The notes beneath the pieces are model-generated. The model did no database searches and had not been told where the DNA came from. It saw only the letters and a program-made list of their open reading frames with translations. Source: Azolla caroliniana (taxonomy: Eukaryota > Plantae > Polypodiophyta). Taken from it: 64,000 bases of DNA. This document shows, piece after piece, positions 1 through 64,000 of this stretch (positions within the stretch are counted from its first letter, which is position 1; each line of letters starts with the position of its first letter). The position numbers and the translations under genes are program-made. The stretch covers positions 10,974,001 to 11,038,000 of the forward strand of contig JBHGNT010000003.1 in assembly GCA_043228905.1 (NCBI GenBank), read 5' to 3'.

Positions 1-1275
1 AATGCTCGTACGCCTTCATGAGGAGGAGAGGTGCATGGGCAAGCCCGAACGCTCCCTCGTCACGAGACGACCGCACGTACGAGGAAGACACAAACACACG
101 CACAAAATGCTCGTATGCCTTTATGAGGAGGAGAGGTGCTGTTACGGGCATGACCATTTAATATCCTGTGGTGAGAATTTACTGTAGTATTCTATACACG
201 TGGATAAGTGTGAGGGTTAAACGAGAGTGTAAAGAAGGGGAGGATTACTTTTAATCCTCGGGATTGAGACAACCCATTAGGTCAAGTGTGAACTAGCTTG
301 GGGGCCTTGGGTATCGCTATAAATAAGAGGCCTAGCTACCCTCATTTGATCATCTTTTGACTACATCGAGACTCTTCTCTTGTGGTGGGTCAACTCTTGT
401 AGCGAGCGCGCCAGCACCAGGTACGACTCAACGCCACGGTGGTGGTATGGGATGCCGATCAAGGCTCGAGTCCGTCTCGATCCCTTCGCTCGGGGGTGGT
501 CGGGTGGATCGGCACCCATCTTTCTCTTTCTCCTTTCTATCTATCATTACTTTATCCTTATCTTAAGCTTACTTTAGTACCTAAATCTCTAATAGATGCA
601 TGGGCAAGCCCGAAACGGTCCCTCGTCACAAGACGACCGAACGTACGAGGAAGACATAAACACACACACAAATGCTCGTACGTCTTTATGAGGAGGAGAG
701 GTGCATGGGCATGCCCAAAACACTCCCTCGTCACAAGACGACCGAACGTACAAGGAAGACACAAACACACACACAAATGCTCGTACGCCTTTATGAGGAG
801 GAGAGGTGCATGGGCAAGCTCGAAACGGTCCCTCGTCACAAGACGGCCGAACGTACAAGGAAGACACAAACACAACACGAATGGTCGTACGTCTTTGTGA
901 GGAGGAGAGGTGCATGGGCACGCTCGAAACGGTCCCTCGTCACAAGACGACCGAACGTACGAGGAAGACATAAACACACACACAAATGCTCGTACGTCTT
1001 TATGAGGAGGAGAGGTGCATGGGCAGGCCCAAAACACTCCCTCGTCACAAGACGGCCGAACGTACAAGGAAGACACAAACACACACACAAATGCTCGTAC
1101 GCCTTTATGAGGAGGAGAGGTGCATTGGCAAGCTCGAAACGGTCCCTCGTCACAAGACGGCCGAACGTACAAGGAAGACACAAACACAACACGAATGGTC
1201 GTACGTCTTTGTGAGGAGGAGAGGTGCATGGGCACGCCCGAAACGGTCCCTCGTCACAAGACGGCCGAACGTACA
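1..1275. repeat. ~105-bp tandem repeat array with ~314-bp trimeric higher-order structure, interrupted by a solo LTR
   Basis: The unit 'gaggaggagaggtgcatgggc...ccctcgtcacaagacg...aacgtac...ggaagacacaaacac' recurs at about 600, 705, 810, 914, 1019, 1124 and 1228. Variants repeat every third unit. The array runs off the left edge. Confidence 0.93.
140..594 (+). mobile_element. Solo LTR of the Gypsy-A chromovirus family
   Basis: Starts tgttacgggcatgacc and ends ctctaata. Matches the LTRs at 11279-11734, 38822-39266 and 60021-60475. TSD ggtgc/gatgc; the repeat unit resumes in register. Confidence 0.92.
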
Positions 1276-5806: not shown

Positions 5807-6047
5807 TATTAGAGATTTAGGTACTAAAGTAAGCTTAAGATAAGGATAAAGTAATGATAGATAGAAAGGAGAAAGAGAAAGAAGGGTGTTGATCCACCCG
5901 ACCACCCCCGAGCGAATGGATTGAGACGAACTCGAGCCTCGATCGGCATCCCATACCACCGTCGTGGCGTCGAGTCGTACCTGGTGCTGGCGCACGCTCG
6001 CTACAAGAGTTGACCCACCACAAGAGTAGAGTCTCGATGTAGTCAAA

Positions 6048-9000
6048 ACTTTGGATCTCAATCAATCACGATATCCATCGGTAACCCATAAAAACGAAAT
6101 AATTCGTCAACAAATTGGTAAGCCAATTCAGGAGCTGTTACCGTGGTTTTAGTAGCAATAAATCTGGCCATTTTAGTTAGTCGATCAACGAAAACCCAGA
6201 TGGCATCATGACCTTTTTGGGTGCGAGGAAGGCTAACAATAAAATCCATGGATATACTTTCCCACTTATTATTGGGAATGTCCAAGGGATGTAAAAGTCC
6301 TGCGACTTTAAGTCGCTCGGCTTTGTTAAGCTGACACTGGTGACATTTAGTCACATAGCTATGTATGTCAGGACGCATCTTCGGCCAATAAAATTGAGTG
6401 GAGATGAGAACGAGTGTACGATGTATTCCAGGGTGCCCTGCTGAGGGTGCATCATGGCATTCAAAAAGAATCCCCTTTTTGACCTCAGGTAAATCTGGAA
6501 CACAAACCTTCCCATTACGGTAGAGCAAACCGTTAGCAATGTGGAAGTATTCCTTCGAGGATGTGGTGGTGTCTATTCCAGACTCAACTCTTGCCCACTA
6601 TTTTGCAAAATAACCGTCATCAGGATACTTTCCTCGAAGGTGATCATAAAGATATGATGTTATTTCAGTGAAGCTAAGCATGTTAACTTCACGGATGCGA
6701 CTTAGTGCATCAGCGACAGTGTTCATGGAACCTTTACGATATCGTATGGAAAAATCCAAGTCCTGGATGAGATCAGCCCATCGTGCCTTACAACCTTTCA
6801 GGTCTTGTTGGTCACAAAAATATTTCAAGGACTCGTGGTCCGTAGTTGCCACAAAGCGATTTCCATAAAGATAATGCCGCCATGTTTTGAGCGCATGTAT
6901 AACTGCAAATAGTTCCTTTTCTTGAACGGTATACCGACATTGAGCAGAATCAAGTTTCTTACTCTCGATATAAGACAACACCTATAGCAGAATCGCTTGC
7001 ATCGGTTTCAACCTCAAAAGGTTTTGAAGGATCAGGTAAAAGAAGTGAAGGAGCCTTGCAAACCAGGTCCTTGAGTTCCTTAAAGGCGAGGTTTAGTGTA
7101 GCATTCCCCACAATAGGTTTTGTAGACTTACGCGTTTGACCTTTTAAAAGATCAGTAAACGGCGTTGTCAATTGGGAGTAATTACGAAGAGACTTTCGCA
7201 AAAACCCGACAAAACCAAGGAATGATCGAACTTCTCGAATATTCCGAAGAGTGGGCCAAAGCTTGATTTTCTCAATGCGAGAAGGATCAATTTCAACTCC
7301 TCGTTCGGTTATGAGATGTCCAAGATAAGTAATTGATTTCTTGAAGAACTCACATTTTGAGATCTTCGCATAAAACTATTTGTCATGCAATGTTTGTAAA
7401 ACAAAGCGGACATGTCTAGCATGTTCTTGTAATGTACGGCTATAAACTAAAATATCATCCAAGAAAATAACGACAAATTTTCCAAGTTGTTCTCGGAAAA
7501 TGTCATTCATTTCTTGTTGAAAAGTAGCCGGAGCATTGGTCAAACCAAAAGGCATAACCAAAAACTCGTAATGGCCATAGCGCGTACGAAATGCCGTTTT
7601 AGGAACACCGTCCTCACTTATTTGTATTTGATGGTAGCCAGTACGGAGATCAAGTTTCGTAAAATACCGAGCTCCCTGGAGACGGTCAATTAGATCGTCA
7701 GCTCGGGGCAATGGGTACGAATTCTTGATCGTCACTTTATTCAAGCGTCGGTAATTAATACACATACGCCATGTGCCCTCTTTCTTTTTAACCAAGAGAA
7801 TTGGTGCACCCCATGGAGATTTACTATAACGTATATAACCCATTCGTAAATAGTCCTTGGGTTGCTTAGATACCTCATCTTCTTCGGATCGACTTAAGCG
7901 ATACGGAGGTATACTTATTGGTGCAACACCAGGTACAATATCTATACGATGGTCTATATTACGTTTAGGAGGTAACCCATCACGTAGTTCACTTGGAACA
8001 ACATCATGAAAATCATTTAAGATTTCATCAAGTTGTTGTTGTTCAAAATATGTTAATTGAACCGGGACATTATCGATATTGTAAACGTGAATGTCCGGAT
8101 CAAGAACACAATAAAATAACGTAGAACAAGACAACTCGGATATTGATGGACACGAGGAAACAATCGAGAGGGATTGTTTTTTTACACATTAAATAAAATG
8201 CGTACAATCGTTCAGTACAAAAGAAATGGAATGGCGAACCCAATCAATAAATAAAGATGAGTTTTTATTATAAAACCAGGGATAACCCAGTATTACATCG
8301 GTGGTACAAAGATTCATTACATGGAAGTCTACTTCCTCTATATAAGTATCAACAGAAATTCCTAATGAATGAATCACCCCATTGATGTATTGTACTCTTC
8401 CATCAGCCAAGTGCACTGTGTAGGTGTGATCACTTACGGTGGGTTGGATTCCCCATATCTGAACCAAACGATCATTCACAAAATTGTGTGAGCTTCCAGA
8501 ATCAAATAAAAATTGTACGGGAGATCCATTGATATACCCGTTTCCACGTAGTAAATCATTGGGACCCAATACATAGTGAGGGAAAGAACATTGAGAATTA
8601 CTTAAATGATGTGTATAGACTTGAAGGACATTAGGAATCTGACCTTTATGGTCTGCAGCTTTAGCTTTGTTGTCATGCTCTTTCCATTGGAGCTTTCGAC
8701 ATTGATATTTTGTATGACCCTTCTTTTTGCAGAATACGCAAAAAGGATGTTGTCGCTTACAATCGCGATCTAGGAATTCTTTGGGTGTCTTGCGTTTCCC
8801 AACAAATTGCGATTGCTTAGTCCCGGGCACTTCGTTGGGTTTGTTGTGGTCCTTCTTCGAAGTGCGTTGATAGCGAAGAACTATTTCAACGGCCTCTTCG
8901 AAGGATTTTGGATCCTTATCGTGCACTATCCAGTGATAGTCCGAATTGGGGATGCCATTGACAAAACAAGCTATCAACCAATTGTCCCCTTCTAGACCCG

Positions 9001-9577
9001 ATTTTTGGATTTGGGTTCTAGCATGGTGAACATAATCTTCTAGCGAGGAAAATTTCCTGCTAGAGAGGTTCATTAAAGCTTGTGTTGCCTCGGTTCGAGA
9101 GGGAGGTTGCAGAAATTGGCCCTTAAAAACCGTGACAAAATCTGTCCAGGTATCGGGCAATTTCCCCATATTACGGAGCCTACGCCACCAGGCGGCGGCC
9201 TTACCCCCGAGTTCTCCGCCGACATATGCAGTCTTCGTACTATCTGGCGTGGGATAGAGCTCAAAATGAGACTCCCATCGGCCCAACCACGTGCAGATTG
9301 CTTCTTCGGTTCTTTCCTTTTTGTCTCCCGTAAATGGCTTAACGACAAACGATGGTTCACCCTGTCGCTCATCAGGTCTATTAGTCTCACGTTGTAGACT
9401 AATGACACGTGCCTCGAGAGCACTTTGAGATTGCCGAAGTTCGGTCATCTGTTGAGCGGTGAAACTAAGGTATTGGGTTATATGTGCCAAATACATCTCA
9501 GTGGACATTTGTCCAGGAGGATTCCCTTGAGTTCCTTCCGCTTGAGCGGATGACATCGGGTCGTTAATTTGAGCCAT
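6048..9577 (-). pseudogene. Gypsy-A1 gag-pol with stops
   Basis: CCHC knuckle [48 protein letters not shown] zinc finger HDAPSAGHPG. Confidence 0.92.
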
Positions 9578-10833
9578 TAAAGATTATTTCTAGAAAAGAA
9601 ATAGGATAAGGTCAGAGAGATAGTCATAACATCATGTCGTGATGTAAACCTATCATGGGCGAGCATTAATCGATATCATTATCTCACGTCAATACCCCTC
9701 TAGACGTATGAGATGAGGTTCAAGATCAGGTTACTATGGTAACACAAAGGTGTTTTAAAAACCATGGGGGTGACAATTTAATGTCTTTCCCTGATCTCTA
9801 TATCGATTTTTTCATGGAGGCTCCCCGAGGCTCAACCATGTATGTTCGTGTCATGAGTAGTTTATATACGAAAAAAAATGTTAACAATAAACTATGTTTC
9901 TTTGCCCACATATGTGGTTTCGGCTCTTTAAGTCCTATTACGAGGACCCCGAGGTGCACTTAGACCTTAAGTCTAAACATGTTTTATAGTCATATGTATC
10001 AAGGATGTTGTATGGTCTTGGTCATATTTGAACTCGAGACCTCGAGAACAAATACATTAAACACTTGAGCCAACCAAGTAAGTTGCTCTTCTCGAAAGCT
10101 TAATGTTTGATGCGTATAAGAGATATGCGAGGCATTTGATCATATATGTTTTTTTTAATAGAACATATATGTCAAGGGTCCTTATTTCGCCCTCATTTAC
10201 CAAAACTATGTTGGTACGTTACCTAACCTCAAGTCTCGTAATTACGATGGCATACGCCAAAGTGCAACCTAATGGTAAAGCCAAATGAGCCCTCGTTTCG
10301 TAGTAGGCCCACGTGGCCCATCACATGGTCACGTCATTACGAATGCCTCTCGTAAGGACGAGGTCATGGTGGCATCGTATCCATGTAACGAGGGTGGGAT
10401 GTTGGATACGTGTGTCATTGGAGCGACCTCACTTGAAGTGGGTCAAGCCCTACGTACTCAACATCATTATGGCTATAGGCGTTTCTTTACGTAACGAAAT
10501 CAAGGTCATCAACGGGGTTGTCAACAATAGAAAATTGTTGAAAAAGGGATGGTGACAACGCCATTCTCACAAAAATGTGAGGACGGCCACCAACATCCTT
10601 TCCCCAAAAAGGAAAACATTCGATATTAAAATCACATAATAACTTATATACACATATGTATATATTATCACATATATACAATCCAATATGTATACACGTG
10701 ACCACATATGCATATATTAAACAAATCGTTATTTCAAATAGCCTGAAATGATGTAATCGAGATACGTAATCGAGGCATATACCTCTACGCACACGAAACA
10801 TCCACAAATAAGAGATCATCGTAATACGCAATT

Positions 10834-11015
10834 GAGGTATTGACCTCTTACGCATACGAGACCAAACACATATCCTTTACAATAAATCAAGGTATTAAAC
10901 TCATACGCAAACGTAACATATGTTCGTGAACGTAATACATAATTGAGGTATTAACCTCGTACGCATACGACACTCATCGCATATTATTTATATGTCAAAC
11001 GAGGTATTGATCTCG
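10834..11015. repeat. ~56-bp degenerate tandem repeat with palindromic core gaggt-attg-acctc in the Gypsy-A 5' UTR
   Basis: Cores at ~10834, 10889, 10945 and 11001. Same spacing in copy 2 at ~38381, 38437, 38493 and 38549. Confidence 0.7.
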
Positions 11016-11734
11016 TGCACATATGTAAACGTTTTAGATAATCAATTAAAGACCACTACAACATCATTGACTTAATGAAAAAAATTGACATATAAACTAA
11101 ACACATGATTTGATGGGAGTAGAGAGAATAGAAAGAAAAAAAATTATTACGGAAAGAGTTACCGAAGTTCTTTGTTGATCGTTGTCTGGATCAAGGCCGA
11201 CCGCACATCGATCGATCACCATCAATCAAAAGATAAAAGACAAACAAAGAAACATTAGTACATAAATCTGATACCAAATATTAGAGATCTAGGTACTAAA
11301 GTAAGCTTAAGATAAGGATAAAGTAATGATAGATAGAAAGGAGAAAGAGAAAGAAGGGTGCCGATCCACCCGACCACCCCCGAGCGAATGGATCGAGACG
11401 GACTCAAGCCTCGATCGGCGTCCCATACCACCGCCATGGCGTCGAGTCGTACCTGGTGCTGGCGCGCTCGCTACAAGAGTTGACCCACCACAAGAGCAGA
11501 GTCTCGATGTAGTCAAAAAGATGATGAAATGAGGGTAGCTAGGCCTCTTATTTATAGCGATACCCAAGGCCCCCAGGCAAGTTCACACTTGACCTAATGG
11601 GTTGTCTCAATCCCGAGGATTAAAAGTAATCCTCCCCTTCTTTACGCTCTCGTTTAACCCTCACACTTATCCACGTGTATAGAATACTACGGTAAATTCT
11701 CACCACGGGATATTAAATGGTCATGCCCGTATCA

Positions 11735-13535
11735 TTTGCTCCTGTAGCTAATATGACGACAGTTCGTGTGGTGTTGGCGGTTGCTGCAACAAGAGGGTGG
11801 CATCTTCACCAGATGGATGTGAAGAATGCGTTTCTTTAGGGTGATCTTGAAGAAGAAGTCTTTATGACTCCGCCCCTCGGTTTTCAATCGGAGATGAACA
11901 AGTCGGCGGTATGCCGACTAAAGAAGTCGTTGTACGGCCTGAAGCAAGCCCCTCGAGCTTGGAATGCGAAGATCACGCACCAGTTGCACAAGATGGGGGT
12001 TTGCGGCCTCCAAGTCTGACTCTTCGTTGTTCATCCGGCAAGGCTCAACCGGTCGGGTATGTATCCTTTTGTATGTTGATGATTTAGTCATCACCGGACC
12101 GGGTCTTCCAGAAGTCAACCGCGTCAAGTCCCAGTTGTCAGACGCATTTGAGATGAAGGACCTGGGGGACCTTCATTATTTTCTTGGGATCGAGGTGATC
12201 CGAACCCCCAATGGCATATTGCTCTCACAATGACATTACGTCTTGAATATGCTGTACAAGTTCGGCATGACAGAATGCCGACCTGTCTCCACACCCTTGG
12301 ACCGGAACCAGAAGCTTCGTCCCAACTCTGGACCGGCCTGCAACGAGAAACGGTTCCGAAAAATTGTTGGAAGCCTTATTTACTTGACTATCACGCGACC
12401 CGACATCAGCTATCCGGTCGGAATGATAAGTCAGTTCATGCAGAAGCCGACCGTGGAGCACCTTCAGTGCACGTAGTGGATACTGCGATATCTAAGCGGC
12501 ACAAAGGACCGGTGTTACGGGTATGACCATTTAATATCCCATGGTGAGAATTTACCGTAGTATTCTATGCACGTGGATAAATGAGGGTAGCTAGGCCTCT
12601 TATTTATAGCGATACTCAAGGTCCCCAGGCAAGTTCACACTTGACCTAATGGGTTGTCTCAATCCCGAGGATTTAAAGTAATCCTCCCCTTCTTTACAGT
12701 CTCGTTTAACCCTCACACTTGTCCACGTGTATAGAATACTACGGTAAATTCTCACCACGAGATATTAAATGGTCATACCCGTAACAACCAGGGCTTGTTA
12801 TACCGGCGCAGTATACCCGAAGAGCTGGTCGGTTACACAGATGCCGACTGGGTAGGCGATGCATCAGATCGCCGATCAACCTCCGGTTACATGTTTTCCC
12901 TAGGTAGCGTGGTTGTTGCATGGAGCAGCAAAAAGCAGCCAACAGTTGCTCTATCGAGCACTGAGGCTGAGTATCGAGGCGCTACCATTGCCACCTGTGA
13001 AGCCATTTGGCTTCGACGACTACGGCAAGACCTACAGATCGAGGTACCGACCCCGGTTCTGGTCTACTGCAACAACATAAGCAACATGCAACTCGCCAAG
13101 AACCCCGTATTCCATGCTCGCACAAAGCACATAGAAGTGCACTATCACTTCGTGCGTGAGCGTGTCCTGAGCGGTGAGGTCGAACTTCGGTATGTTCACA
13201 CGGATCGGCAAGTTGCCGACATCTTCACCAAACCACTCGGATCGGACAAGTTGCAGCACTTCACCGAAATGCTTGGTGTTCAGCATCTCGACGTGCCACA
13301 CTTGAGCGGGAGAATGGGCAAAGACACCAGAACGGCAAAGGCAAAGAGACTGCCGATTGGGCCGGTGAGGGAAGAACCGACGAAGGGAGAGTCAAGAAGA
13401 AGAAAGGAGCTGAGTCGACAAGGGAAGTCGACACGTCTGAACAAGTCGGAACAAGTGGCGGCGGCGGCAGAGTCAAGAAGGACAGAGCCGAACAAAGGAA
13501 GAAGGCCAAGACCCGGACATGGTCCAATGTGGTGA
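11735..13535 (+). pseudogene. Copia-A1 RT and RNase H, interrupted at 12513-12786
   Basis: Motifs [22 protein letters not shown] and [14 protein letters not shown]. Confidence 0.92.
12513..12786. mobile_element. 274-bp foldback element built from two inverted Gypsy-A U3 ends
   Basis: Starts tgttacgggtatgacc and ends ggtcatacccgtaaca, giving ~68-bp terminal inverted repeats. TSD accgg/accag. Confidence 0.9.
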
Positions 13536-14832
13536 AGGGCTTGGAACCAGAAGACGACCGGGAGCAACCGATTCGGACAAGAGCTGGAACGAATCAGAGA
13601 CAGTCGATTCGGTTCAACAGACAGATTCGGAAGAACTGGATCAATTCAAGGCCAAGAGGACGAGAAGGCAGCGAAAGTCGACGTCAACACGAAGGAATCG
13701 GCGAACCGGAATGCGCCGAAGTCACAGTAGCAAGGGAGCTGAATTGGGCATGTTGAGCAGACAAGCCGACCGAGGAGGTCGAGGTGCGCATAACAAGAGG
13801 GGTCGCGGCAAACAGAACCGGACCAGACGAGGAGCGCGAGCAAGGCGGAGCGACGCCAAGAGAAGTCGATTGGAAGAACCGACTGCCACAAAGGCTGACA
13901 CTAGGATCCAACCTCAAGTTAAGCTTGAGGGGGATTGGCTGGATAAGCCTGAGCCGGTGAGCGAGACAGATTGGTAAGCCGGTGAGCAACAAAGCCGGTG
14001 AGCTAGGGAGCCGGATAGTCGGAAGCCTAGTATTAGTTTAGACTACTAGGCAGTTATAGTCTCGTAGTAAGTGTCAGATGCTCGTGTGAGCATTGAAGTA
14101 TGCGGTACTTTTGTCAGTCCCACGAGGACTTGTATAAATAGTGCTACTGAGCACTGTTGTAAGAGAGAGAGAGTGTTTATATTGTTTTTTAAGGGAACAA
14201 CCCGCTCTCTATACATAACGCTCGGCCACAACCGAGCTTAGAATCATACACAGAAAACGGGAAATAAAGAACGACACGAAGAAGAGACGAGTACACAGGA
14301 TGTTTACATGGAAAAACCCAAACAGGGAAAAAACCACGGCAGCCCACAGGCTGCAAACTATCACTATGCTAGAATGTACAACAGTGAGTTCACGGAGGCA
14401 ACGACCTCGTGCTCACGATCCTCGCCACAAGCGGCGGTTACAACAGAGGCAACAACCTCTTTCTCTCTCTCTCTGTACACTGTTACACGCTCACTCTATT
14501 CTTGGACCAACAAGAATGACAACAGTCAACAGTAACATAAATGTTTGCCCTAAGTCATATTTATACTAATATGACTTTTCGGCTATTTACAAATATAGCC
14601 TCGATGGACTCTCAGAAACATATTTACGAATATGTCTCTTCATCCGGTGAGCATTCCTCACCGAGTCTGCACCATCTGGCTCTCCGTAGCCGGGTACTCC
14701 TCATCCGGTTCTCACCGGGTCTGCACCATCCGACTCTTCGTAGCCGGGGACTCCTCATCCGGTTCTCACCGGGTCTGCACCGTTCTTCTCCCTTCCCATC
14801 CGGAGGGACCTGTCTCCCAACAAACTTCCCCT

Positions 14833-30313: not shown

Positions 30314-32321
30314 GGCTCAAGCTTATTCAGCTGATTCGGATCCGGTTGAGCTTGCTCGCTCAACACTCCCCCTCAAGCTCAACTTGAGGTCGGATCATGG
30401 AGTTAGTGTCTGCGACAACCGGTTCTTCTACCCAACTCCTAGCGTTGCCCCGCCTTGCTCGCGCTCCTCGTTCGGTTCAGTCCTATTTGCCCCAACCCTT
30501 CTGGTTCTGCGCACCAGGCCCATTTCAGCTCCCTCGCTGTTGCGACTCCGGCAGTTGTTGACCCGTCGGTTCCTTCGTGTTGGCATTGACTTTCGTTGCG
30601 TTCGTGTCCGGTTGGCCTTTAGTTGATCCGGCTCCTCCGAACCGAATCTAACTGTTGAAGCGAATCCGATGTCTCCGATTCGTTCCAGTCCTTGTCCGAA
30701 ATGACTGCTCCCGATTTGTTCTGGCTCTTGTTCGAGTTGGTGTTCGCCAACTCATCTTCTGGTTTCAGGCCCTTCACCACATCAGACCATGTCCGGGTCT
30801 TGGCCTTCTCCTTCCGGTCAGCTATGTCCTTCTTGACTCTGTCATTGCTGCCGTTTGTTCCGACTTGTTCGGATGTGCCGACTTCGTTCGTCGACTCGGC
30901 TTCCTTTTTCCCTTTGTCTTCCCCTTTGTTGGTTCTTCCCTTTCCGGTTCCTTGTCTGGTGCCGTCCGCAGTTTCATTGCCTTTGCCCATTATGGCACCG
31001 GTTTCTTTGCCGTTGCCCATTCTCCCCCTCAAGTGCGGCATGTTGAGATGTTGAACACCAAGCATTTCGGTGAAGTGCTACAACTTGGACGATCCGAGTG
31101 GTTTGGTGAAGATGTCGGCAACCTGCAAATCCATCTGAACATACCGAACTTCGACTTCACCGCTCAGGACCCGCTCATGCACGAAGTGATAATATACTTC
31201 TATCTGCTTCGTTCGAGCATGGAATACAGGGTTCTTGGCGAGTTGTATGTTGCTCATGTTGTCATAGTGGATCAGGATTGGGGTCGGGACCTCGATCCGG
31301 AGATCTCGCAGCAGTCGCCGAAGCTAGATGGCTTCACATGTGGCATTGGTAGCGCCCCAGTACTCAGCCTCAGTGCTAGACAAACACACTGTTGGCTGGT
31401 TTTTGCTGCTCCATGCAACAGCTGCGCTACCAAGGGAAAACATGTAACCGGAGGTGGATTAGCGATCCGATGCATCACCAGCCCAGTCAACATATGTGTA
31501 GCCGACTAGCTCTTTAGTTATACCATGCCGATATAATAGTCCTTGGTTCTTCGTGCCGCTCACATACCATAATATTTGATACGCGCACTGAAGGTGCTCC
31601 ACGGTTAGCTTCTACATGAATTGGTTGATCACATCAACTAGATAATTGATGTCGGGTTGGGTAATTGTCATGTATATCAGGCTTCCGACTATTTGTCAAA
31701 ACTGTTTCTCATCATAGGCCGGTCAGGAGTTGGGACGGAGCTTCTAGTTCCAGTCCAGGGGAGTAGAGACAGGTCGACATTCCGTCATGCCGAACTTGTA
31801 TAACATATTCAATACATAATGGCGTTGTGAGAGCAATATGCCATCGGGGGTTCGGATCACCTTGATCCCAAGAAAATATCGAAGGTCCCCCAGGTCCTTC
31901 ATCTCAAATCCGTCCGATAGCTGGGACTTCACTCGGTCAATTTCATTGAGACCGGGTCCGGTGATGACTAAATCACCTACATAAAGTAAGATGCAAACCG
32001 GACCATCCAGACCTTCCTAGATGAACAACGATGAGTCAGATTTAGAGGTCACAAACCCCATCTTATGCAACCGATGCGTGATCTTCACATTCCAAGCTCG
32101 AGGGGCTGGTTTCAGACCGTAAAGTGACTTCTTAAGCCGGCACACCGCCGACTTGTTCATCTCCGACTGAAAACCGGGAGGTTGAATCATATAGACCTGT
32201 TCTTCAAGATCACCTTGAAGAAACAAATTCTTCACGTCCATTTGGTGAAGATGGCACCCCCTTGCCGCAACAACTGCCAGTACCACACGAACCGTCGTCA
32301 TCTTCGCCACTAGAGCGAAGG

Positions 32322-35300
32322 TATTGGAGACATGAACTAACGTAACCATAAAATAATGATAAAAGATAGAAAGGAGAGAGAGAAAGAAGGGTGCCGATCC
32401 ACCCGACCACCCCCGAGCGCAGGGATCGAGACAAACTCGAGCCTCGATCGGTGTCCCATATCACCGTCGTGGCGTCGAGTCGTACCTGGTGCTGGCGCAC
32501 TCACTACAAGAGTTGATCCACCACGAAACAGAGTCTCAACGTAGTCAACAAGATGATGAAATGAGGGTAGCTAGGCCTCTTATTTATAGCGATACCCAAG
32601 GCTCCTAGCCAAGTTCACACATGGCCTAATGGGTTGTCTCAATCCCGAGGATTAAAAGTAATCCTCCACTTCTTTACACTCTCATTTAACCCTCACACTT
32701 ATCCACGTGTATAGAATACTACGGTAAACTCTCACCACGGGATATTATATGGTCATGCCCGTAAGATACTCCCCCTCTTTAAAACATTGCACTCTTGCAA
32801 TGGAAAGTTAGGGAAGGTAGTTCTGAGAGTATTTTCGCGTTCCCATGTGGATTTCTTTAGTACGTAATTTTTTTGTTTTAACATCGAGAATTCTTTCTGG
32901 TACATGTATTTTAGAAGATAATTCTTCAGAAGTAAACAAAGTTTTAGTTGTAACTGTATTGTCGCCGCAAGAACCTAGAAGTTATTTTAGACGACTCACA
33001 TGAAAAATTGGATGAATTTCAACACCATTGGGAAGAGCGAGACGATAGGCTGATGACCCAATGCGTTTGAAGACTGTAAAAGGTCCACAAAACCATGGGG
33101 CTAACTTAACACACTTACCCTTAGACAATGTCTTAGAATTGTGAGGTACACATAAAACTACTTTCTGTCCAGGGTGGAATACACAAGGTTGCCTATGATG
33201 ATCAGCATAAAAATGCGCTCTATCTTGAGCTGTTTTTATATTATCTCGTGCAATATGCAACATATCTTGCATATCCCGACGAAAGTTTTGTGTACATCGC
33301 AACTCATCTTGATGTATATTAACATCAATCGGGGCTCGTGGCTGAAAACCAAACATCAACATAAAAGGACTATATCCCGTCGATGTATGCTTGGAGCTGT
33401 TATAAGCAACTCCAAAATTGGGAGATAACGTTCCCATTTTGTTGGTTTTGCACCAACGTATGCTCAAAGCATGTCCTCAATAATTTGATTTATTCGTTCT
33501 GTCTGTCCATTGCATTGAGGATGATTCGTGGTGCTTATGCTCAATGTAGTTTTTGAAGACTTGCGTCCAAAAGTCACTAGTAAACTTTGGATCTCGATCA
33601 CTCACGATATCCATCAGTAACCCATAAAAACGAAATAACTCATCAACGAATTGGTAACCCAATTCAGGAGCTGTTACCGTGGTTTTAGTAGCAATAAATC
33701 TGGCCATTTTAGTTAGTCTATCAACCACAACCCAGATGGCATCATGGCCTTCTTAGGTGCGAGGAAGGCTAACTATAAAATCGATGGATATAGTTTCCCA
33801 CTTATTATCGGGAATGTCCAAGGGATGTAAAAGTGCTTCGGCTTTAAGTCGCTTGGCTTTGTTAACCTGACATTGGTGACATTTAGTCACATAGCTATGT
33901 ATGTCAGGGCGCATCATAGGCCAATAGAATTGAGTGGAGATTAGAACGAGTGTACGATGTATTCTAGGGTGCCCTATTGAGGGTGCATCATGGCATTAAA
34001 AAATAATTCTCTTTTTGACCTCAGGCAAATCTGGAACACAAACCTTCCCATTACGGTAGAGCAGACCGTTAGTAATGTGGAAGTATTCCTTCAACAATGT
34101 GGTGGTGTTTGTTCTAGACTCAACTCTTGCCCAGTATTTCACAAAATAACTATCATCAGGATACTTTCCTCGAATGTGATCATAAAGATCTGATGTTATT
34201 TCAATGAAGCTAAGCATGTTAACGTCACGGATGGGACTTAGTGCGATAGTGTTCATGGAACCTTTATGATATCGTATGGAAAATCGAAGTCCTAGATGAG
34301 ATCAGCCCATCGTGCCTTACAACCTTTCAGGTCTTGTTGGTCACAAAAATATTGCAAGGACTCGTGGTCCGTAGTTACCACAAAGCGATTTCCATAAAGA
34401 TAATGGCGCCATGTTTTGAGCGCATGTATAACTGCAAATAATTCCTTTTCTTGAACGGTATACCGAGATTCAGCAGAATCAAGTTTCTTACTCTCGAATG
34501 TTATTGGTTTACCATCTTGATATAAGATAGCACCTATAGCATAATCTCTTGCATCAGTTTCAACCTCAAAAGGTTTTGAAGGATTAGGTAAAAGAAGCGA
34601 AGGAGCCTTGCACACCAGGTCCTTGAGTTCCTTAAAGGTGAGGTCTAGTGTAACATTCTAGACAATAGGTTTTGTAGACTTTCGCGTTTCACCTTTTAGA
34701 AGATCAGTAAACGACGTTGTCAATTGGGAGTAATTACGAAGGGATTTTTGGAAAAACCCGACAAAACCAAGGAATGACGGAACTTCTCGAATATTCCGAA
34801 GAGTGGGCCAAAGCTGGATTTTCTCAATGCGAGAAGGATCAATTTCAACTCCTCATTCGGTTTTTAGATGTCCAAGATAAGTAATTGATTTCTTGAAGAA
34901 CTCAAATTTTGAGATCTTCGCATAAAACTGTTTGTCACGCAATGTTTGTAAAACAAAGTGGACATGTTTAGTATGTTCTTGTAATGTACGGCTATAAACT
35001 AAAATATCATCCAAGAAAATAACAACAAATTTTCCAAGTTTTTCTCCGAAAATATCATTCATTTCTTGTTGAAATGTAGCCAGAGCATTGGTCAAACCAA
35101 AAGGCATAGCCAAAAACTCATAATGGCCATAGTGCGTACGAAATGCCGTTCTAGGAACATCGTCCTCACTTATACGAATTTGATGGTAGCCAATACGGAG
35201 ATCAAGTTTCGTAAAATACCGAGCTCCCTAGAGACGGTCAATTAGATCATCAACTCGGGGCAATGGATACAAATTCTTGATCACTTTATTCAAGCGTCGG

Positions 35301-38300
35301 TAATTAATACACATACGCCATGTGCCCTCTTTCTTTTTAACCAAGAGAACTGGTGCACCCCATGGAGATTTACTATAACGTATATAACCCATTCGTAAAT
35401 AGTCCTTGAGTTGCTTAGATACCTCATCCTCTTCGGATTGACTTAAGTGATAAGGAGGTATACTTATTGGTGCAACACCAGGTACAATATCTATACGATG
35501 GTCTATATTACGTTTAGGAGGTAACCCATCACGTAGTTCACTTGGAACAACATCATGAAAATCATTTAAGATTTCATCAAGTTGTTGTTGTTCAAAATAT
35601 GTTAATTGAACCGGGACATTATCGATATTGTAAACGTGAATGTCCGGATCAAGAACACAATAAAATAACGTAGAACAAGACAACTCGGATATTGATGGAC
35701 ACGAGGAAACAATCGAGAGGGATTGTTTTTTTACACATTAAATAAAATGCGTACAATCGTTCAGTACAAAAGAAATGGAATGGCGAACCCAATCAATAAA
35801 TAAAGATGAGTTTTTATTATAAAACCAGGGATAACCCAGTATTACATCGGTGGTACAAAGATTCATTACATGGAAGTCTACTTCCTCTATATAAGTATCA
35901 ACAGAAATTCCTAATGAATGAATCACCCCGTTGATGTATTGTACTCTTCCATCAGCCAAGTGCACTGTGTAGGTGTGATCACTTACGGTGGGTTGGATTC
36001 CCCATATCTGAACCAAACGATCATTCACAAAATTGTGTGAGCTTCCAGAATCAAATAAAAATTGTACGGGAGATCCATTGATATACCCGTTTCCACGTAG
36101 TAAATCATTGGGACCCAATACATAGTGAGGGAAAGAACATTGACAATTACTTAAATAATGTGTATAGACCTGAAGGACATTAGGAATCTGACCTTTATGG
36201 TTTGCATCTTTAGCTTTGTTGTCGTGCTCTTTCTGTTGGAGCTTTCAACATTAGTCTTTTGTATGTCCCTTCTTGTTGCGGAATACGCAAAAAGGATGTT
36301 GTCGCTTACAATCACGATCCATGAATTCGTTGGGTGTCTTGCATTTCCCAACGAATTGTGATTGCTTAGTCCCGGGTGCTTCGTTGGGTTTGTTGTGGTC
36401 CTTTTTCGAAGTGAGTTGATAGCGAAGAACTATTGCAACGGCCTCTTCGAAGGATTTTGGATCCTTATTGTGCACTATCTAGTGATAGTCTGAATTGGGG
36501 ATGCCATTGACAAAACAAGCTATCAACCAATTGTCCCTTTCTAGACCCGACTTTTGGATTTGGGTTCTAGCATGGTGAACATAATCTTCTAGCGAGGAAA
36601 ATTTCCTGCTAGAGAGGTTCATTAAAGCTTCTGGTGCCTTGGTTCGAGAGGGAGGTTGCAGAAATTGGCCCATGAAAACTGTGACAAAATCTGTCCAGGT
36701 ATCAGGCAATTTCCCCAAAGTTCGGAGCCCACGTCACCAGGCGGCGGCCTTACCCCCTAGTTCTCGGCCGACATATGCAATCTTCATACTATCTGGCGTG
36801 GGATAGAGCTCAAAATGAAATTCCCATTGGCCCAACCACGTGCAAATTGCTTCTTCGGTTCTTTCCTTTTTTTCTCCCATAATGGCTTAACGACAAACGA
36901 TGCTTCATCCTATCCCTCATCAGGTCTATTAGTCTCACGTTGTAAACTAATGACACGTGCCTCGAGAGCACTTTGAGATTGCCGAAGGTTTGTCATCTGT
37001 TGAGCGGTGAAATTAAGGTATTGGGTTATTTGCGAAAAATATATCTCAATGGACATTTGTCTAGGAGGATTCCCTTGAGTTCCTTCCACTTGAGCGGATG
37101 ACATTGGGTTGTTAGTTTGAGCCATTGAATGATTATTTTTGGCAAAGAAATAGGATAAGGTCAGCCAAATAGTCATAACATCATGTCAGGATGTAAACAT
37201 GTCATGGGCAAACATTAATCGATATCATGATCTCACGTCAATACCCCTCTAGACGTATGAGATGAGGTTCAAGATAAGGTTACTATGGTAACACTAAGGT
37301 GTTTTAAAAACCATGGGGGTGACAAATAAATGTCTTTCCTTGATATCTATATCGATTTTTTTCATGGCGGCTCCCCGAGGCTCAACCATGTATGTTCGCG
37401 TCATGAATAGTTTATACACGAAAAAAATGTTAACAATAAACTATGTTTCGGTGCCCACATATGTGGTTTCGGCTCTTTAAGTCCTATTACGAGGACCCCG
37501 AAGTGCACTTAGACCTCAAGTCTAAACATGTGTTATAGTCATATGTATCAACGATGTTGTATGGTCTTGGTTATATTTGGACTCGAGACCTCGAGAACAA
37601 TTGCATTAAACACTTAAGCTAACCAATTAGGTTGCTCTTTTTGAATGTTTAATGTTTCATGTGTATAAGAGATATGCAAGGCATTTGCCCATATATGTAT
37701 TTTTAAAAGAAACATATATGTCAAGAGTCCTTATTTCCCCCTCGTTTACCACAAACTTTGTTGGTACGTTACCTAACCTCAAGTCTCGTAATTACGATGG
37801 CATACACCAAAGTGCAACCTAATGGTCAAGCCAAATGAGCCCTCTTTTCATAGTAGGCCCACGTGGCCCATCACATGGTTACGTCATTACGAATTCCTTT
37901 CATAAGAATGATCTCATGGTGGCATCATATCCATGTAATGAGGGAGGGATGTTGGATATATGTGTCATAAGAGCAATCTCACATGAAGTGGGTTAAGCCC
38001 TACGTACTCAAAAACATTGTGGCTATGATTGTTTCATTACGTAACGAAATATCGAAGTGACCAACAGGGATGTCAACAAAAAATTGTTGAAAAAGGGATG
38101 GTGAAAAAGCTATTCTCACAAAAATGTGAGGAAGGCCACCAAGATCCTTTTCTCGACAAGGACAACATTCGATAGAAATCACGTAATATCAAATATACAC
38201 ATATGTTTACTTATCACATATATACGATCAAATACGTATACATGTGACCACATATGCATACATTAAACAAATCGTTACATCAAATAGCCAGAAATGATGT

Positions 38301-39266
38301 AATCAAGATACGTAATCGAGGCATATACCCTGTACGCAAACAAAACATCCAAAAATAGTGGTTCATCGTGATACACAATTCAGGTATTGACCTCTTACGC
38401 ATACGAGACCAAACGCACATCATTTACAATGAAATCGAGGTATTGACCTCATATGCATACGTAACATATGTATGTGAGCATAATTCGCAATTGAGGTATT
38501 AACCTCGTGCACATACGACATTAATCACATATTCAATATATGTCAAATGAGGTATTGACCTCATACACATATTTAAACGTTTTATACAACCAATTAATTA
38601 CCACTACAACATCATTGAATTAATGAAAAAAATTACATATAGACTATATACATGATTAGATGGGAGAAGGAAAAATAGAATAGAAGAAGAAGGAAAGAGT
38701 TACCGAAGTTCTTTGTTGATCGTTGTCTGGGTCAAGGCCGACCGCACATCGATCAATCACCATCAATCAAGAACACCAAAGACAACAAAAGAAACATTAG
38801 AACATGAGCTCGGATACCAACTATTAGAGACATGAACTAATGTAAGAATAAAATAAGGATAAAAGATAGAAAGGAGATAGAGAAAGAAGGGTGTCGATCC
38901 ACCCCACCACCCCAGAGTGAAGGGATCGAGAAAGACTCGAGTATCGATCAATGTCCCATACCACCGCCGTGGCGTCGAGTCGTACCTGGTGCTAGCGTGA
39001 TCGCTGCAAGAGTTGATCCACCACGAAATAGAGTCTCGACCTAGTCAACAAGATGATGAAATGAGGGTAGCTAGGCCTCTTATTTATAGCGATACCCAAG
39101 TCTCCCAGGCAAGTTCACACATGGCCTAATGGGTTGTCTCAATCCCGAGGATTAAAACTAATCCTCCCCTTCTTTACACTCTCATTTAACCCTCACACTT
39201 ATCCACGTGTATAGAATACTACGGTAAATTCTCACCACGGGATATTATATGATCATGCCCGTAACA
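32322..39266 (-). mobile_element. Gypsy-A copy 2, full-length but degenerate, in sense orientation inside Copia-A2 RT
   Basis: LTRs 32322-32766 and 38822-39266. PBS tggtatccgagc, PPT aaagagggggag. Perfect TSD gaagg. Confidence 0.95.
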
Positions 39267-49607: not shown

Positions 49608-50686
49608 AGGAAAATTCACACACTCATACACAGGGTTTGTACGTCTCTAGACCTTCTATCGTTGCCGCCGCCGCCATTGCCACTACCGCCGCAATCATTT
49701 CCATCTCCACGAGTGCCGCTGCCGCCATCATTGCTGATGCCGCCGCACCATCATTGCCGCCACTGCCGCAATCATTACCGCCTCCACAGTGCCATCATCG
49801 CAGCCACACCGCCACCATCGCCGTCACCGTCGTGATCGTTGTTTCACTAGATCACGCAAGCCGGCAACACGCGAACAAACGAGGAATCCATCCCGACACC
49901 AATTCTGGATACTGCCAAACAAGAGGAACCTCATGTCATGTCACCAGAAATTACCACTACGGTGAACAGCACGGAACGGCGAGCGAAGTTCCCCGCAATA
50001 CCAGACAACGAAACCACCGACCAAGAGGAACCCCATCCACCGGCGCTGTCGTGACGATTTTTTGCTACTGTGTGAAACCGAGTGAGACGAATAAACCAAG
50101 GATGTGCAACATTGCACATGCACTTAGCAAATAAACCTAGCCTAGTGGCACTTGAGTTCATACACAGGGGTGCAAGCAAGATTTGAACCTTGCACCTCTA
50201 AGATACAAGATGATTGCCTTACCATTAGGACAACTATCATATAGTGTAGATTCTATGTATTTCCTTTTCATATACAAATTATAGACGAAACAACCATAGA
50301 AAACCATGTGCACAAAACCATGGTTTGTGCATGACATAAGCAAAACCGTGTGCACAAAACCATGGTTTTAGCCCATGGTTTTGTGCATGTCACGAGCATG
50401 GAAAGACCTATAAAAGCCTCTAGTTGGGCTTGTGTAAGGGGGGCTCAATATGTGATATCACCAACACCATTATCATCAATATAATTGTCTTTATCTTCTT
50501 CATTATTTTCTACTTCTCAAGTGTACAAGCTTTCTTCTTCTCAAGTGAACAAATTCCGTCTAATCTTACATTGATCGTCATCTCTTCGATAATTCCGCGA
50601 ACGTCCTCCCCAGTCCAAGACCCCGGTGGTCGCTCGAGTAGCACACGCACGCGCGAATCTTCGCGACATCAGTTGGTGAACCCGAC

Positions 50687-55800: not shown

Positions 55801-56337
55801 GTCCGGATACGACAACTGGAGGGAAGACCGAAAGATGTAGCGGAAGCGTCACGCCGACAACAAGAAGCACGGTTCCGGAACAAAAGCCGGTTCGACACAA
55901 AGCACCGACTACGACCGAGGAGGATTGAAGAAGGAGATTGGGTGATCGTCTATGATAGTAGCTTGGACCATCAACATACAACGATGCGGAAATTCGCGAA
56001 AAGGTGGTTCGGGCCGTACGAGGTTCGGAAGGTCTTCGACAACGGGACGTACCGACTGTCCGAGTTGGATGGAACAATACTACGAGTGCCTATAGCCGGG
56101 AAGCGGGTAAAGATTTTCAAGAAGCGGACCGACGACAAACCTTATGTGATCCAAGTCGAGGCCGACAACGAGGAGCAATCGGACGAAGACCACAATGATG
56201 CGGGAAGCGAAGAAAGTGGATTACAACTCATAGTCGACATAAGGGGAGAATCGGAGGAAGCTTCGGATGAAGACGGATACGAAGAATCAAGAACTTCGGC
56301 ACATACCGGAGGATGTGCGGGTTTGGAGGGGGCGAGA
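52741..56337 (+). CDS. pol: Pol (RT-RNase H-integrase) in the -1 frame; one premature TGA at 54694-54696; no chromodomain
   Basis: Frame open from 52741. RT FLDDI, RH TVDTSPTG, INT HESDWAGH...CEKC and DDE core, WFGPY. Confidence 0.88.
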
Positions 56338-56345
56338 CCAAATGA

Positions 56346-56967
56346 TGTCGCGAAGATTCGCGCGTGCGTGTGCTACTCGAGCGACCACCGGGGTCTTGGA
56401 CTGGGGAGGACGTTCGCGGAATTATCGAAGAGATGACGATCAATGTAAGATTAGACGGAATTTGTTCACTTGAGAAGAAGAAAGCTTGTACACTTGAGAA
56501 GTAGAAAATAATGAAGAAGATAAAGACAATTATATTGATGATAATGGTGTTGGTGATATCACATATTGAGCCCCCCTTACACAAGCCCAACTAGAGGCTT
56601 TTATAGGTCTTTCCATGCTCGTGACATGCACAAAACCATGGGCTAAAACCATGGTTTTGTGCACACGGTTTTGCTTATGTCATGCACAAACCATGGTTTT
56701 GTGCACATGGTTTTCTATGGTTGTTTCGTCTATAATTTGTATATGAAAAGGAAATACATAGAATCTACACTATATGATAGTTGTCCTAATGGTAAGGCAA
56801 TCATCTTGTATCTTAGAGGTGCAAGGTTCAAATCTTGCTTGCACCCCTGTGTATGAACTCAAGTGCCACTAGGCTAGGTTTATTTGCTAAGTGCATGTGC
56901 AATGTTGCACATCCTTGGTTTATTCGTCTCACTCGGTTTCACACAGTAGCAAAAAATCGTCACGACA
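56346..56967 (-). repeat. Inverted, apparently identical copy of LTR-C (622 bp)
   Basis: Reverse complement of 50047-50668. Spurious ORFs 50158-50355 and 56659-56856 translate identically. Confidence 0.95.
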
Positions 56968-60020: not shown

Positions 60021-63000
60021 TATTATAGATCTTGGTACTAACGTAAGCTTAAGATAAGGATAATGAAAAGATAGATAGAAAGGAGAAAGAGAAAGAAGGG
60101 TGCCGATCCACCCGACCACCCCCGAGCGAAGGGATCGAGACGGACTCGAGCCTCGATCGGCGTCCCATACCACCGACGTGGTGTCGAGTCGTACCTGGTG
60201 CTGGCGCGCTCGCTACAAGAGTTGACCCACCACACGAGCAGAGTCTCGATGTAGTCAAAAGATGATCAAATGAGGGTAGCTAGGCCTCTTATTTATAGCG
60301 AAACCCAAGGCCCCCAGGCAAGTTCACACTTGACCTAATGGGTTGTCTCAATCCCGAGGATTAAAAGTAATCCTCCCCTTCTTTACACTCTCATTTAACC
60401 CTCACACTTATCCACGTGTATAGAATACTACGGTAAATTCTTACCACGGGATATTATATGGTCATGCCCGTAACATACTCCCCCTCTTTAAAACATTGCA
60501 CTCTTGCAATGGAAAGTTAGGGAAGTTAGTTCTAAGAGTATTTTCGCGTTCCCATGTGGCATCTTTTATTGATTTATCCATCCATTTTATTTTGAATTCT
60601 CGGATTTCTTTAGTACGTAATTTTTTTGTTTTAACATCGAGAATTCTTTCTGGTACATGTGGTTTAGAAGATAATTCTTCAGAAGTAACCAGAGTTTCAG
60701 TCGTAACTGTATTGAAAGACTGGATGAATTCCGACACCATCGGGAAGAGCGAGACGATAGGCTGATGACCCAATGCGTTTGAGGACTGTAAAAGGTCCAC
60801 AAAACCGTGGGGCTAACTTAGCGCACTTACCCGTAGACAATGTCTTAGAATTGTGAGGTACACGTAAAAATACCTTCTGTCCAGGGTTGAATACACGAGG
60901 TTGCCTATGATGATCGGCATAAAAACGTGCTCTATCTTGAGCTGTTTTTATATTATCTCGTGCAATATGCAACATATCTTGCATATCCCGAAGAAAGTTT
61001 TGCGTACTTCGCAACTCATCATGATGTATATTAACATCAATCGGGGCTCGTGGCTGAAAACCAAACATCAACATAAAAGGACTATATCCCGTCGACGTAT
61101 GCTTGGAGCTGTTATAAGCAAACTCCAAAATTGGGAGATAACGTTCCCATTTTGTTGGTTTTGCACCAACGTATGCTTGAAGCATGTCCTCAATAATTTG
61201 ATTTACTCGTTCTGTCTGTCCATCGGATTGAGGATGATCCGTGGAGCTCATGCTCAACGTAGTTTCTAACTTCTTAAAGACTTGTGTCCAGAAGTCACTA
61301 GTAAACTTTGGATCTCGATCACTCACGATATCCATCGGTAACCCATAAAAACGAAACAATTCGTCAACAAATTGGTAAGCCAATTCAGGAGCTGTTACCG
61401 TGGTTTTAGTAGCAATAAATCTGGCCATTTTAGTTAGTCGATCAACGACAACCCAGATGGCATCATGACCTTTTTGGGTGCGAGGAAGGCTAACAATAAA
61501 ATCCATGGATATACTTTCCCACTTATTATTGGGAATGTCCAAGGGATGTAAAAGTCCTGCGGCTTTAAGTCGCTCGACTTTGTTAACCTGACACTGGTGA
61601 CATTTAGTCACATAGCTATGTATGTCAGGACGCATCTTAGGCCAATAAAATTGAGTGGAGATGAGAACGAGTGTACGATGTATTCCAAGGTGCCCTGCTG
61701 AGGGTGCATCATGGCATTAAAAAAGAATCCTCTTTTTGACCTCGGGTAAATCTGGAACACAAACCTTCCCATTACGGTAGAGCAAACCGTTAGCAATGTG
61801 GAAGTATTCCTTCAAGGATGTGCTGGTGTCTGTTCCAGACTCAACTCTAGCCCAGTATTTTGTGAAATAACTGTCATCAGGATACTTTCCTCGAAGGTGA
61901 TCATAAAGATCTGATGATATTTCAGTGAAGCTAAGCGTGTTAACTTCACGGATGCGACTTAGTGCATCAACGACAATGTTCATGGAACCTTTACGATATC
62001 GTATGGAAAAATCAAAGTCCTGGATGAGATCAGCCCATCGTGCCTTACGACCTTTCAGGTCTTGTTGGTCACAAAAATATTTCAAGGACTCGTGGTCCGT
62101 AGTTACCACAAAGTGATTTCCATAAAGATAATGGCGCCATGTTTTGAGCGCATGTATAACTGCAAATAATTCCTTTTCTTGAACGGTATACTGACATTGA
62201 GCAGAATCAAGTTTCTTACTCTCGAATGCTATTGGTTTACCATCTTGATACAAGACTGCACCTATAGCATAATCGCTTGCATCGGTTTCAACCTCAAAAG
62301 GTTTTGAAGGATCAGGTAAAAGAAGTGAAGGAGCCTTGCAAACTAGGTCCTTGAGTTCCTTAAATGCAAGGTCTAGTGTAGCATTCCACACAATAGGTTT
62401 TGTAGACTTACGCGTTTGACCTTTTAAAAGATCAGTAAACGGCATCGTCAATTGGGAGTAATTACGAAGAGACTTTCGCAAAAACCCGACAAAACCACGG
62501 AATGATCGAACTTCTCGAATATTCCGAAGAGTGGGCCAAAGCTTGATTTTTTCAATGCGAGAAGGATCAATTTCAACTCCTCGTTCGGTTATGAGATGTC
62601 CTAGATAAGTAATTGATTTCTTGAAGAACTCACATTTTGAGATCTTCGCATAAAACTGTTTGTCACGCAATGTTTGTAAAACAAAGCGAACATGTCTAGC
62701 ATGTTCTTGTAATGTACGGCTATAAACTAAAATATCATCCAAGAAAATAACGACAAATTTTCCAAGTTGTTCTCGGAAAATGTCATTCATTTCTTGTTCA
62801 AAAGTAGCCGGAGCATTGGTCAAACCAAAAGGCATAACCAAAAACTCGTAATGGCCATAGCGCGTACGAAATGCCGTTTTAGGAACATCGTCCTCACTTA
62901 TTCGTATTTGATGGTAGCCAGTACGGAGATCAAGTTTCGTAAAATACCGAGCTCCCTGGAGACGGTCAATTAGATCGTCAGCCCGGGGCAATGGATATGA

Positions 63001-64000
63001 ATTCTTGATCTTCACTTTATTCAAGCGTCGGTAATTAATACACATACGCCATGTGCCCTCTTTCTTTTTAACCAAGAGAACTGGTGCACCCCATGGAGAT
63101 TTACTATAACGTATATAACTCATTCGTAAATAGTCCTTGAGTTGCTTAGATACCTCATCTTCTTCGGATCGACTTAAGCGATACGGAGGTATACTTATTG
63201 GTGCAACACCAGGTACAATATCTATACGATGGTCTATATTACGTTTAGGAGGTAACCCATCAGGTAGTTCACTTGGAAAAACATCATGAAAATCATTTAA
63301 GATTTCATCAAGTTGTTGTTGTTCAAAATATGTTAATTGAATCGGGACATTATCGATATTGTAAACGTGAATGTCCGGATCAAGTACACAATAAAATAAC
63401 GTAGAACAAGACAACTCGGATATTGATGGACACGAGGAAACAATCGAGAGGGATTGTTTTTTTACACATTGAATAAAATGCGTACAATCGTTCAGTACAA
63501 AAGAAATGGAATGACGAACCCAATCAATAAATAAAGAAGAGTTTTTATTATAAAACCAGGGATAACCCAGTATTACATCAGTGGTACAAAGATTCATTAC
63601 ATGGAAGTCTACTTCCTCTATATAAGTATCAATAGAAATTCCTAATGAATGAATCGCCCCGTTGATGTATTGTACTCTTCCATCAGCCAAGTGCACCGTG
63701 TAGGTGTGATCACTTACGGTGGGTTGGATTCCCCATATCTGAACCAAACGATCATTCACAAAATTGTGTGAGCTTCCCGAATCAAATAAAAACTGTACGG
63801 GAGATCCATTGATATACCCGTTTGCACGTAGTAAATCATTGGGACCCAATACATAGTGAGGGAAAGAACATTGACAATTACTTAAATGATGTGTATAGAC
63901 CTGAAGGACATTAGGAATTTGACCTTTATGGTCTGCAGCTTTAGCTTTGTTGTCGTGCTCTTTCCGTTGGAGCTTTCGACATTGATCTTTTGTATGACCC
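60021..64000 (-). mobile_element. Gypsy-A copy 3, best preserved; continues beyond the window
   Basis: 3' LTR 60021-60475, PPT 60476-60489, chromodomain PERILDVK...KW...DATWE, INT 60697-61635, PR-RT-RH ORF 61717-63849. Confidence 0.95.

Follow-up and report, generated by a model that had tools for sequence, protein, structure and literature searches.

How does the LTR of a gypsy retrotransposon come to lie in a genome as a short hairpin with the same U3 terminus at either end? The question is raised by a 274-bp insert in the window, the 64,000-nucleotide stretch of Azolla caroliniana DNA analysed here, and its answer depends on whether the insert is real, whether it moves as a unit, and how it was made.

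The Insert and Its Host

The positions of the PPT and PBS identify TGTTACGGG as the U3 end of the LTR; with the gene orientation of the parent family, which reads gag, protease, RT, and integrase on the minus strand, they place U3 at both ends of the insert (Table 1). An earlier note had described the locus as an LTR-made foldback with two U3 ends and its own target-site duplication (TSD), and this description holds: the U3 ends are exact on both sides, and the TSD is single in the empty paralogue. The short arm has the 68 bp it was said to have, while the long arm, put at about 205 bp, actually has 208 bp.

Table 1. Coordinates of the foldback insert, its host, and the copies of the parent gypsy family in the window.
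Feature	Position	Strand	TSD or remark
Solo LTR of parent family	140..594	+	TSD GGTGC/GATGC
Copy A, 3' LTR without bases 1-216	5807..11734	-	TSD TTCGC/TTTGC
Host: 3' part of decayed Ty1/copia (RT-RNase H region), interrupted by insert	11735..13937	+	
Left TSD of insert, ACCGG	12508..12512	+	Single 5-mer in empty paralogous Copia site at 31547
Foldback insert, 274 bp	12513-12786		LTR 1-68 (+) joined to inverted LTR 1-208
Short arm, LTR 1-68	12513..12580	+	Exact U3 end TGTTA...
Long arm, LTR 1-208	12579..12786	-	Exact U3 end
Junction AA, common to both arms	12579..12580		Best splits 208/66, 207/67, 206/68
TGAGGGT, complement of LTR 199-205	12582..12588	+	Part of predicted priming 3' end
TATA-like box, LTR 179-186	12601..12608	-	Predicted start near junction, points into short arm
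TGAGGGT at LTR 72-78	12709..12715	-	Predicted landing site
Right TSD of insert, ACCAG	12787..12791	+	
Copy B, two full LTRs	32322..39266	-	TSD GAAGG/GAAGG
Copy C, 3' LTR (60021-60475) and integrase region	60021..64000	-	Runs off window

The domain identity of the Copia host is based on motifs seen directly and on the RVT_2 match of its paralogue at 30364-32319, to which it is 74-81% alike. Contigs of Copia paralogues skip 279 bases at this site, that is, 274 + 5, with joints at 12507>12787 and 12511>12791. The insert has a MITE-type shape, being 274 bp long and non-coding with 68-bp terminal inverted arms at 94%, and its TG..CA ends and 5-bp TSD are the parent gypsy family's own ends and TSD length. 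LTR bases 209-456 are missing, and R, U5, PBS, and PPT are all absent, the U3/R border of the LTR being placed by prediction from the TATA box at LTR 179.

Could the structure be an assembly or library foldback artefact? Repeats crowd this region, and no independent reads show the window junction. However, between the arms there are 4 differences in 68 sites, all transitions, and this divergence, together with two rare letters that they have in common (see below), argues against misassembly and for one parent. Moreover, the private mutations of the arms are old, and the flanks are direct duplications rather than mirror images, which argues against a read or assembly foldback; another foldback was assembled twice from separate samples (metagenome loci L102 and L111). 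An artefact is barely credible, and the insert at 12513-12786 is confirmed as real. Since the divergence of its arms is near that of the LTR pairs in copy A (10 of 239) and copy B (36 of 445), it is likely to have formed during the parent family's active period.

The Parent Gypsy Family

The TSDs of the parent family in the window are 5 bp long (Table 1), and ACCGG/ACCAG is, as proposed earlier, typical of it. Gypsy domains and an SH3 domain were found in the window copies, and a chromodomain (PF00385) on P0001, a 96%-identical integrase relative; the best named match is in Ceratopteris richardii (58%) and points to a fern as the likely host. From these matches, the family would be typed as chromovirus-type Ty3/gypsy. 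It is very abundant: the summed contig depth over U3, which is not a copy number, is several hundred thousand, versus tens for single contigs.

All six LTR 3' ends in the window (594, 5807, 11279, 32322, 38822, and 60021) read TA, not CA; several metagenome LTR copies end in CA, and the window sublineage has spread with the non-canonical U5 end. In copy A, one deletion at 6046-6049, with a short T-run homology, removed about 820 bp of the 3' internal region together with LTR 1-216. The deleted piece was considered as the source of the insert and rejected, since the breakpoints differ (216 versus 208); that the deletion has its own short homology also counts against it.

One Parent for Both Arms and Predicted Pairing at the Junction

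The variant gggtatgacc had been read as a sign that both arms derive from one molecule. Its T, at LTR base 10, is indeed present in both arms, in none of the five other window LTRs, and in 3 of 94 ordinary copies. A second letter, 19T, is also in both arms; among the 75 ordinary copies free of indels, 10T occurs in 1% and 19T in 4%. A match to the insert arms without a transversion difference is seen in only 2 of 94 ordinary copies, one of them being the solo LTR at 140-594. These findings support the view that both arms come from one parent element, which is not equal to one molecule; the base-10 T alone, just one transition, was rejected as proof of the latter.

The junction had been placed by TGAGGGT, a motif present in both orientations, and the motif is there (all five LTR copies checked have it at LTR 72-78 and its complement at 199-205), but the switch point lies 3 nt past it, with a 2-nt bulge, and is not in register. 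Pairing is possible between ACCCTCATTT, with which the long arm ends on its 3' side, and LTR 67-78, and it includes one G-T pair as well as this bulge. Among 23,871 conceivable pairs it comes 15th, and in a wider model 50th of 19,250; the helix 72-78/199-205 is in both the MFE and the centroid fold of the U3 strand. In a contig of run X3, an opposite-strand joint at LTR 121/71 falls at the exact edge of an 11-bp stem ranking 9 of 23,871; the joint comes from this single contig at a depth of 7.6, and its topology is an indirect reading.

Recurrence Among Metagenome Loci

A 22-nt U3 motif was found at no fewer than 121 metagenome loci, and 53 of those listed have at least 130 nt downstream. The metagenome host may be a related species rather than the window's, and the contigs are low in coverage, with chimeras frequent among them (none of the 5 LTRs that look solo has a TSD). 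The earlier note had proposed a census in which several copies of the window junction would mean a mobile family and a single copy a one-off event. The outcome lies outside both: the exact junction has 0 matches in the metagenome collection, yet foldbacks that differ in junction and have TSDs of their own are seen repeatedly. Of the 121 loci listed, 12 have an inverted second U3 end, and 11 of these are distinct (L111 is L102 from another assembly and was counted once; L007 and L065, doubtful or not foldbacks, were left out, and L109 was added by eye).

Among the listed loci, eight distinct ones have both flanks. A 5/5 TSD is present at four (L006, L102, L106, and L117) and a 4/5 TSD at L008, the chance per locus being 0.0013 for 5/5 and 0.019 for 4/5 or better, and there is no TSD at the other three (L124, L043, and L060). 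The foldback flanks are not mirror images (4-11 of 30 matching). L008 and L124 have a flank in common with a contig that continues differently, and L083, L109, and L113 are cut by contig ends.

The five TSD-bearing foldbacks are 120, 120, 122, 121, and 168 bp long, with long/short breakpoints at about 71/49 (three times), 95/26, and 141/27. Junctions differ among foldbacks; L006, L102, and L106 (120-122 bp) have one in common, which switches inside a quasi-palindrome around CACGTG at LTR 50-71, whose pairing ranks 104 and 113 of 19,250 in two reference copies. Junctions with a 2-4 nt overlap rank poorly (L008 at 2181 and L113 at about 700 of 19,250), and for those of L117 and L124 no rank was obtainable. 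Eleven of the 12 listed foldbacks are from the 3-A sublineage (extra A at LTR 68-69), which is absent from the window copies. Short-read assemblies break at full LTRs, which inflates the proportion of foldbacks among loci, and because such assembly favours short arms, the clustering of junctions in U3 is unusable as evidence. For most elements, the raw arm-to-arm distance is not below that of random LTR pairs; minority letters in common and transversions alone separate arm pairs from random pairs.

In a search of runs, the best share was 0.45 among the 22 runs listed; none of those listed is of RNA, which carries no information on transcription. Four runs compared with the insert at an 85% cut were swamped by family copies, and none of the listed pieces spans the insert. 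Four runs were compared with ordinary U3 at a 90% cut, which likely drops the 3-A sublineage, and may not include the window locus; the 208/68 joint is not among the matches listed for them, nor is the base-10 T listed at 2% or above. In viral contigs, the motif has 4 matches, 0 of which have LTR homology.

At L060, positions 1037-1235 hold a PPT and then a rearranged U3 ending in an inverted U3 end; unless the contig is chimeric, this is a long element with U3 at both ends. Eight bases outside the U3 end (base -8), A occurs in 50 and C in 3 of 89 distinct flanks of the listed loci (L005-L125), a target-site preference three bases outside the TSD.

A Mobile Family or Repeated Formation?

One possibility is that the foldbacks are a mobile MITE-like family, which a transposase of Ginger type, or else the integrase, excises and reinserts. 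This would account for the TIRs, the TG..CA ends, the short length, and the distinct TSDs, as well as for the one junction type at three complete sites and one or two truncated ones (L083 and L109); moreover, Ginger1 ends have the same TGTNR pattern in the available part of PMC2836005. However, the window junction is not repeated in the metagenome collection, the same-junction copies do not group together and go back to different LTR sublineages, and their TSD is 5 bp, versus 4 bp for Ginger1 (PMC2836005) and 6 bp for GingerRoot (PMC6839031) in the accessible text of these papers.

The same-junction copies were compared by pairwise counts in place of a tree, for which 49 bp is too short. L006, L102, and L106 have 2, 1, and 0 non-transition changes between their own arms, versus 2-6 between elements, and L106 has a 1-nt insertion in both arms. 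Their nearest ordinary LTRs also differ (L061/L103 for L006, L029 for L102, and L059/L066 for L106). For this small sample, independent formation at a hotspot appears a better fit than one amplified master: same-junction foldbacks from different LTR sublineages point to repeated de novo formation and not to a mobile MITE family. Among the foldbacks compared, again a small sample, there is no sign of clonal amplification as a unit, and none of the 22 window ORFs scanned is a transposase partner. The label MITE-like, given to the insert at first sight, therefore suits its shape but does not extend to clonal amplification or a transposase partner. A mobile family is improbable, and the foldbacks are likely to be a repeated copying slip pasted in by integrase rather than a self-spreading miniature transposon.

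How a Second U3 End Could Arise

On balance, we favour the explanation that the foldback is a copy-back by-product of reverse transcription, inserted by the family integrase like normal cDNA. The course of events that we infer from the sequence has five steps. A plus strand primed at the PPT would halt at LTR base 208, and its 3' end, ACCCTCATTT, would pair with plus-strand bases 67-78, either of displaced strong-stop DNA or of itself. RT would then copy back to base 1; since the template begins at U3 base 1, this would yield a second exact U3 end. To complete the other strand, the partner strand would be trimmed and extended, or synthesis would be primed again at the PPT; integrase would finally join both CA ends with a 5-bp stagger. 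Without R, U5, PBS, and PPT, the product is predicted to be dead on arrival, with no retrotransposition. In the copy-back (snap-back) defective genomes of RNA viruses, as in the self-priming of strong-stop DNA, a polymerase copies back on the nascent strand and duplicates one terminus; the insert differs from these viral genomes in that it is DNA, is integrated, and is predicted to replicate no more. According to the available part of PMC5371799, Ty3 repeatedly primes anew at the PPT and accumulates displaced plus-strand strong-stop DNA. Such displaced DNA would supply templates if, as we assume from Ty3, the Azolla family behaves in the same way, and, for as long as the family stays active, new foldbacks would keep arising, with a preference for places where U3 is self-complementary.

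Another explanation is that two full-length cDNAs, or a tail-to-tail dimer, co-integrated at one site by their U3 ends and left a break or giant palindrome, which host repair later resected and joined at an inverted microhomology. The same ends, TSD, and microhomology would be predicted, and cDNAs of one particle would have rare letters in common. The 2-4 nt overlaps at L008 and L113 fit end joining, the arms of L043 are from two different sublineages, and L060 retains a PPT beside one arm; however, L043 and L060 are without a TSD and may be chimeric contigs. Moreover, a rare double event would be required many times, and three elements of different sublineages end as near-spacerless palindromes of 120-122 bp with one junction, a form that we would not expect as the stable end of palindrome collapse. 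Nor is a weak U5 end a general driver, the window copies being TA-ended and several metagenome copies CA-ended; as a general cause, it was rejected because CA-ended copies exist. We consider the joining of two cDNAs the main rival, though unlikely. The earlier reading, a template-switched cDNA inserted by the gypsy integrase, is upheld as to the integrase-type insertion and the inverted microhomology, and a template switch is the more probable of the two routes.

It is very improbable that the insertion began as an ordinary solo LTR or element whose U5 side was exchanged for an inverted piece of U3 by a later slip of host replication. The U3 is rich in inverted repeats, and, in the accessible portion of PMC5041404, host polymerases use either viral strand as a template where HIV ends are aberrant. 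However, the slip would have had to come back at the precise border of U3 base 1 and the TSD in at least six separate cases, and host-made ends, as described in that portion of PMC5041404, usually leave long duplications or deletions and not 5 bp.

Relation to Known Elements

Copy-back products of this kind would be LTR-derived insertions, of which solo LTRs, TRIM, SMART, and LARD are known types. In the parts of PMC13570524 and PMC4717578 available, these are alike in being short, non-coding, LTR-derived, and dependent on the enzymes of the parent, as well as in their 5-bp TSD and TG..CA ends. They consist of a single LTR, or of two in direct orientation along with PBS and PPT (same parts of PMC13570524 and PMC4717578), whereas the insert has two partial, facing U3 arms without U5, PBS, and PPT. 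Two assignments were rejected: a solo LTR, because LTR 209-456 is absent and the second end is U3, and a TRIM or other non-autonomous LTR retrotransposon, because the arms are inverted and there is no PBS or PPT.

MITEs and foldback or hairpin DNA transposons have the same small size, long TIRs, TSD, and strong hairpin in the text available of PMC5172404, but the TIRs of the insert are retrotransposon U3, and its TSD is the gypsy integrase's. As far as PMC2836005 and PMC6839031 are accessible, the TIRs of Ginger1 and GingerRoot begin with TGTNR and their ancestry is integrase-related, as here; unlike the insert, these elements encode a transposase and have 4- or 6-bp TSDs. Membership in Ginger1/GingerRoot was rejected, since the insert has no coding region and a 5-bp TSD. 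Bao et al., in the available part of PMC2836005, state that an LTR origin of the Ginger1 TIRs is unclear and suggest two separate, opposite LTR insertions, whereas here the inverted U3 ends appear as one insertion. Aberrant HIV and RSV proviruses have the same viral-viral DNA joins, in either orientation and at short homologies, in the accessible portion of PMC5041404; one of their ends is inserted by the host with large duplications (same portion of PMC5041404), whereas both ends here look integrase-made.

No description of U3-U3 foldback insertions was found in the open literature, in which subscription journals and older work on the Ty1 and RSV integrases are thinly covered, and the accessible parts of PMC10085805, PMC6894440, and PMC13570524 contain nothing on such a structure. 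In annotation, hairpins of 120-300 bp with TG..CA ends and a 5-bp TSD would be filed as MITEs, though they are likely retrotransposon by-products; as a genomic record, the foldbacks suggest that two U3 ends are acceptable to a gypsy integrase in vivo. Copy-back is also a one-step candidate for the LTR-to-TIR transition behind Ginger1. A broader and tentative idea is that LTR retrotransposons routinely shed integrase-competent, two-U3 copy-back miniatures, which would be a MITE-like TIR class, a source of promoter-targeting silencing hairpins, and a one-step route from gypsy to TIR elements such as Ginger, at which L060 hints.

The Foldback as a Hairpin

As RNA, the insert is predicted to form a 71-bp stem (-150.8 kcal/mol, z -18.6), and it is potentially able to act as a source of hairpin siRNA for its family. 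A hairpin made from its own promoter was rejected, given that the TATA start is predicted at the junction; any transcript of the hairpin would therefore have to come from outside by read-through. A study of EVD in Arabidopsis sought close, opposite-facing LTRs as a trigger and, in the available part of PMC11624286, reports none with short inserts. For the first origin of LTR siRNAs, foldbacks with predictable junctions supply testable loci with opposite-facing U3. Mu killer and nested antisense EVD insertions, as far as PMC11624286 is accessible, are likewise inverted TE duplications able to form hairpin RNA. These cases arise by rearrangement or nesting, and silencing is shown for Mu killer in that accessible text, whereas here it is hypothetical.

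Other Features of the Window

Inverted LTR copies of 631 bp from another gypsy family (50047-50677 and 56337-56967, with 1 difference) enclose a gag-RT-RH-INT region. Their flanks show no TSD (GGCGC/TCCAC); a 37-bp inverted repeat frames the right copy, as do PBS-like and purine-rich stretches. The pair is unexplained; a nested opposite insertion, an in-place inversion, or a misassembly could account for it. An array of ~105-bp units at 489-1312 holds the solo LTR at 140-594 just upstream, and another insertion, L107, adjoins the same repeat.

Copies A and B of the parent family interrupt two paralogous Copia hosts at the same RT codons (DYDETF), their insertion points differing by 2 bp (flanks at 5802-5806/11735-11739 and 32317-32321/39267-39271). 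The hosts are 81% alike, both gypsy copies are antisense to them, and the TSDs differ. L068 is a third insertion at this Copia RT site, ~8 bp further on as judged from its left flank, and the DYDETF codons are possibly an insertion hotspot.
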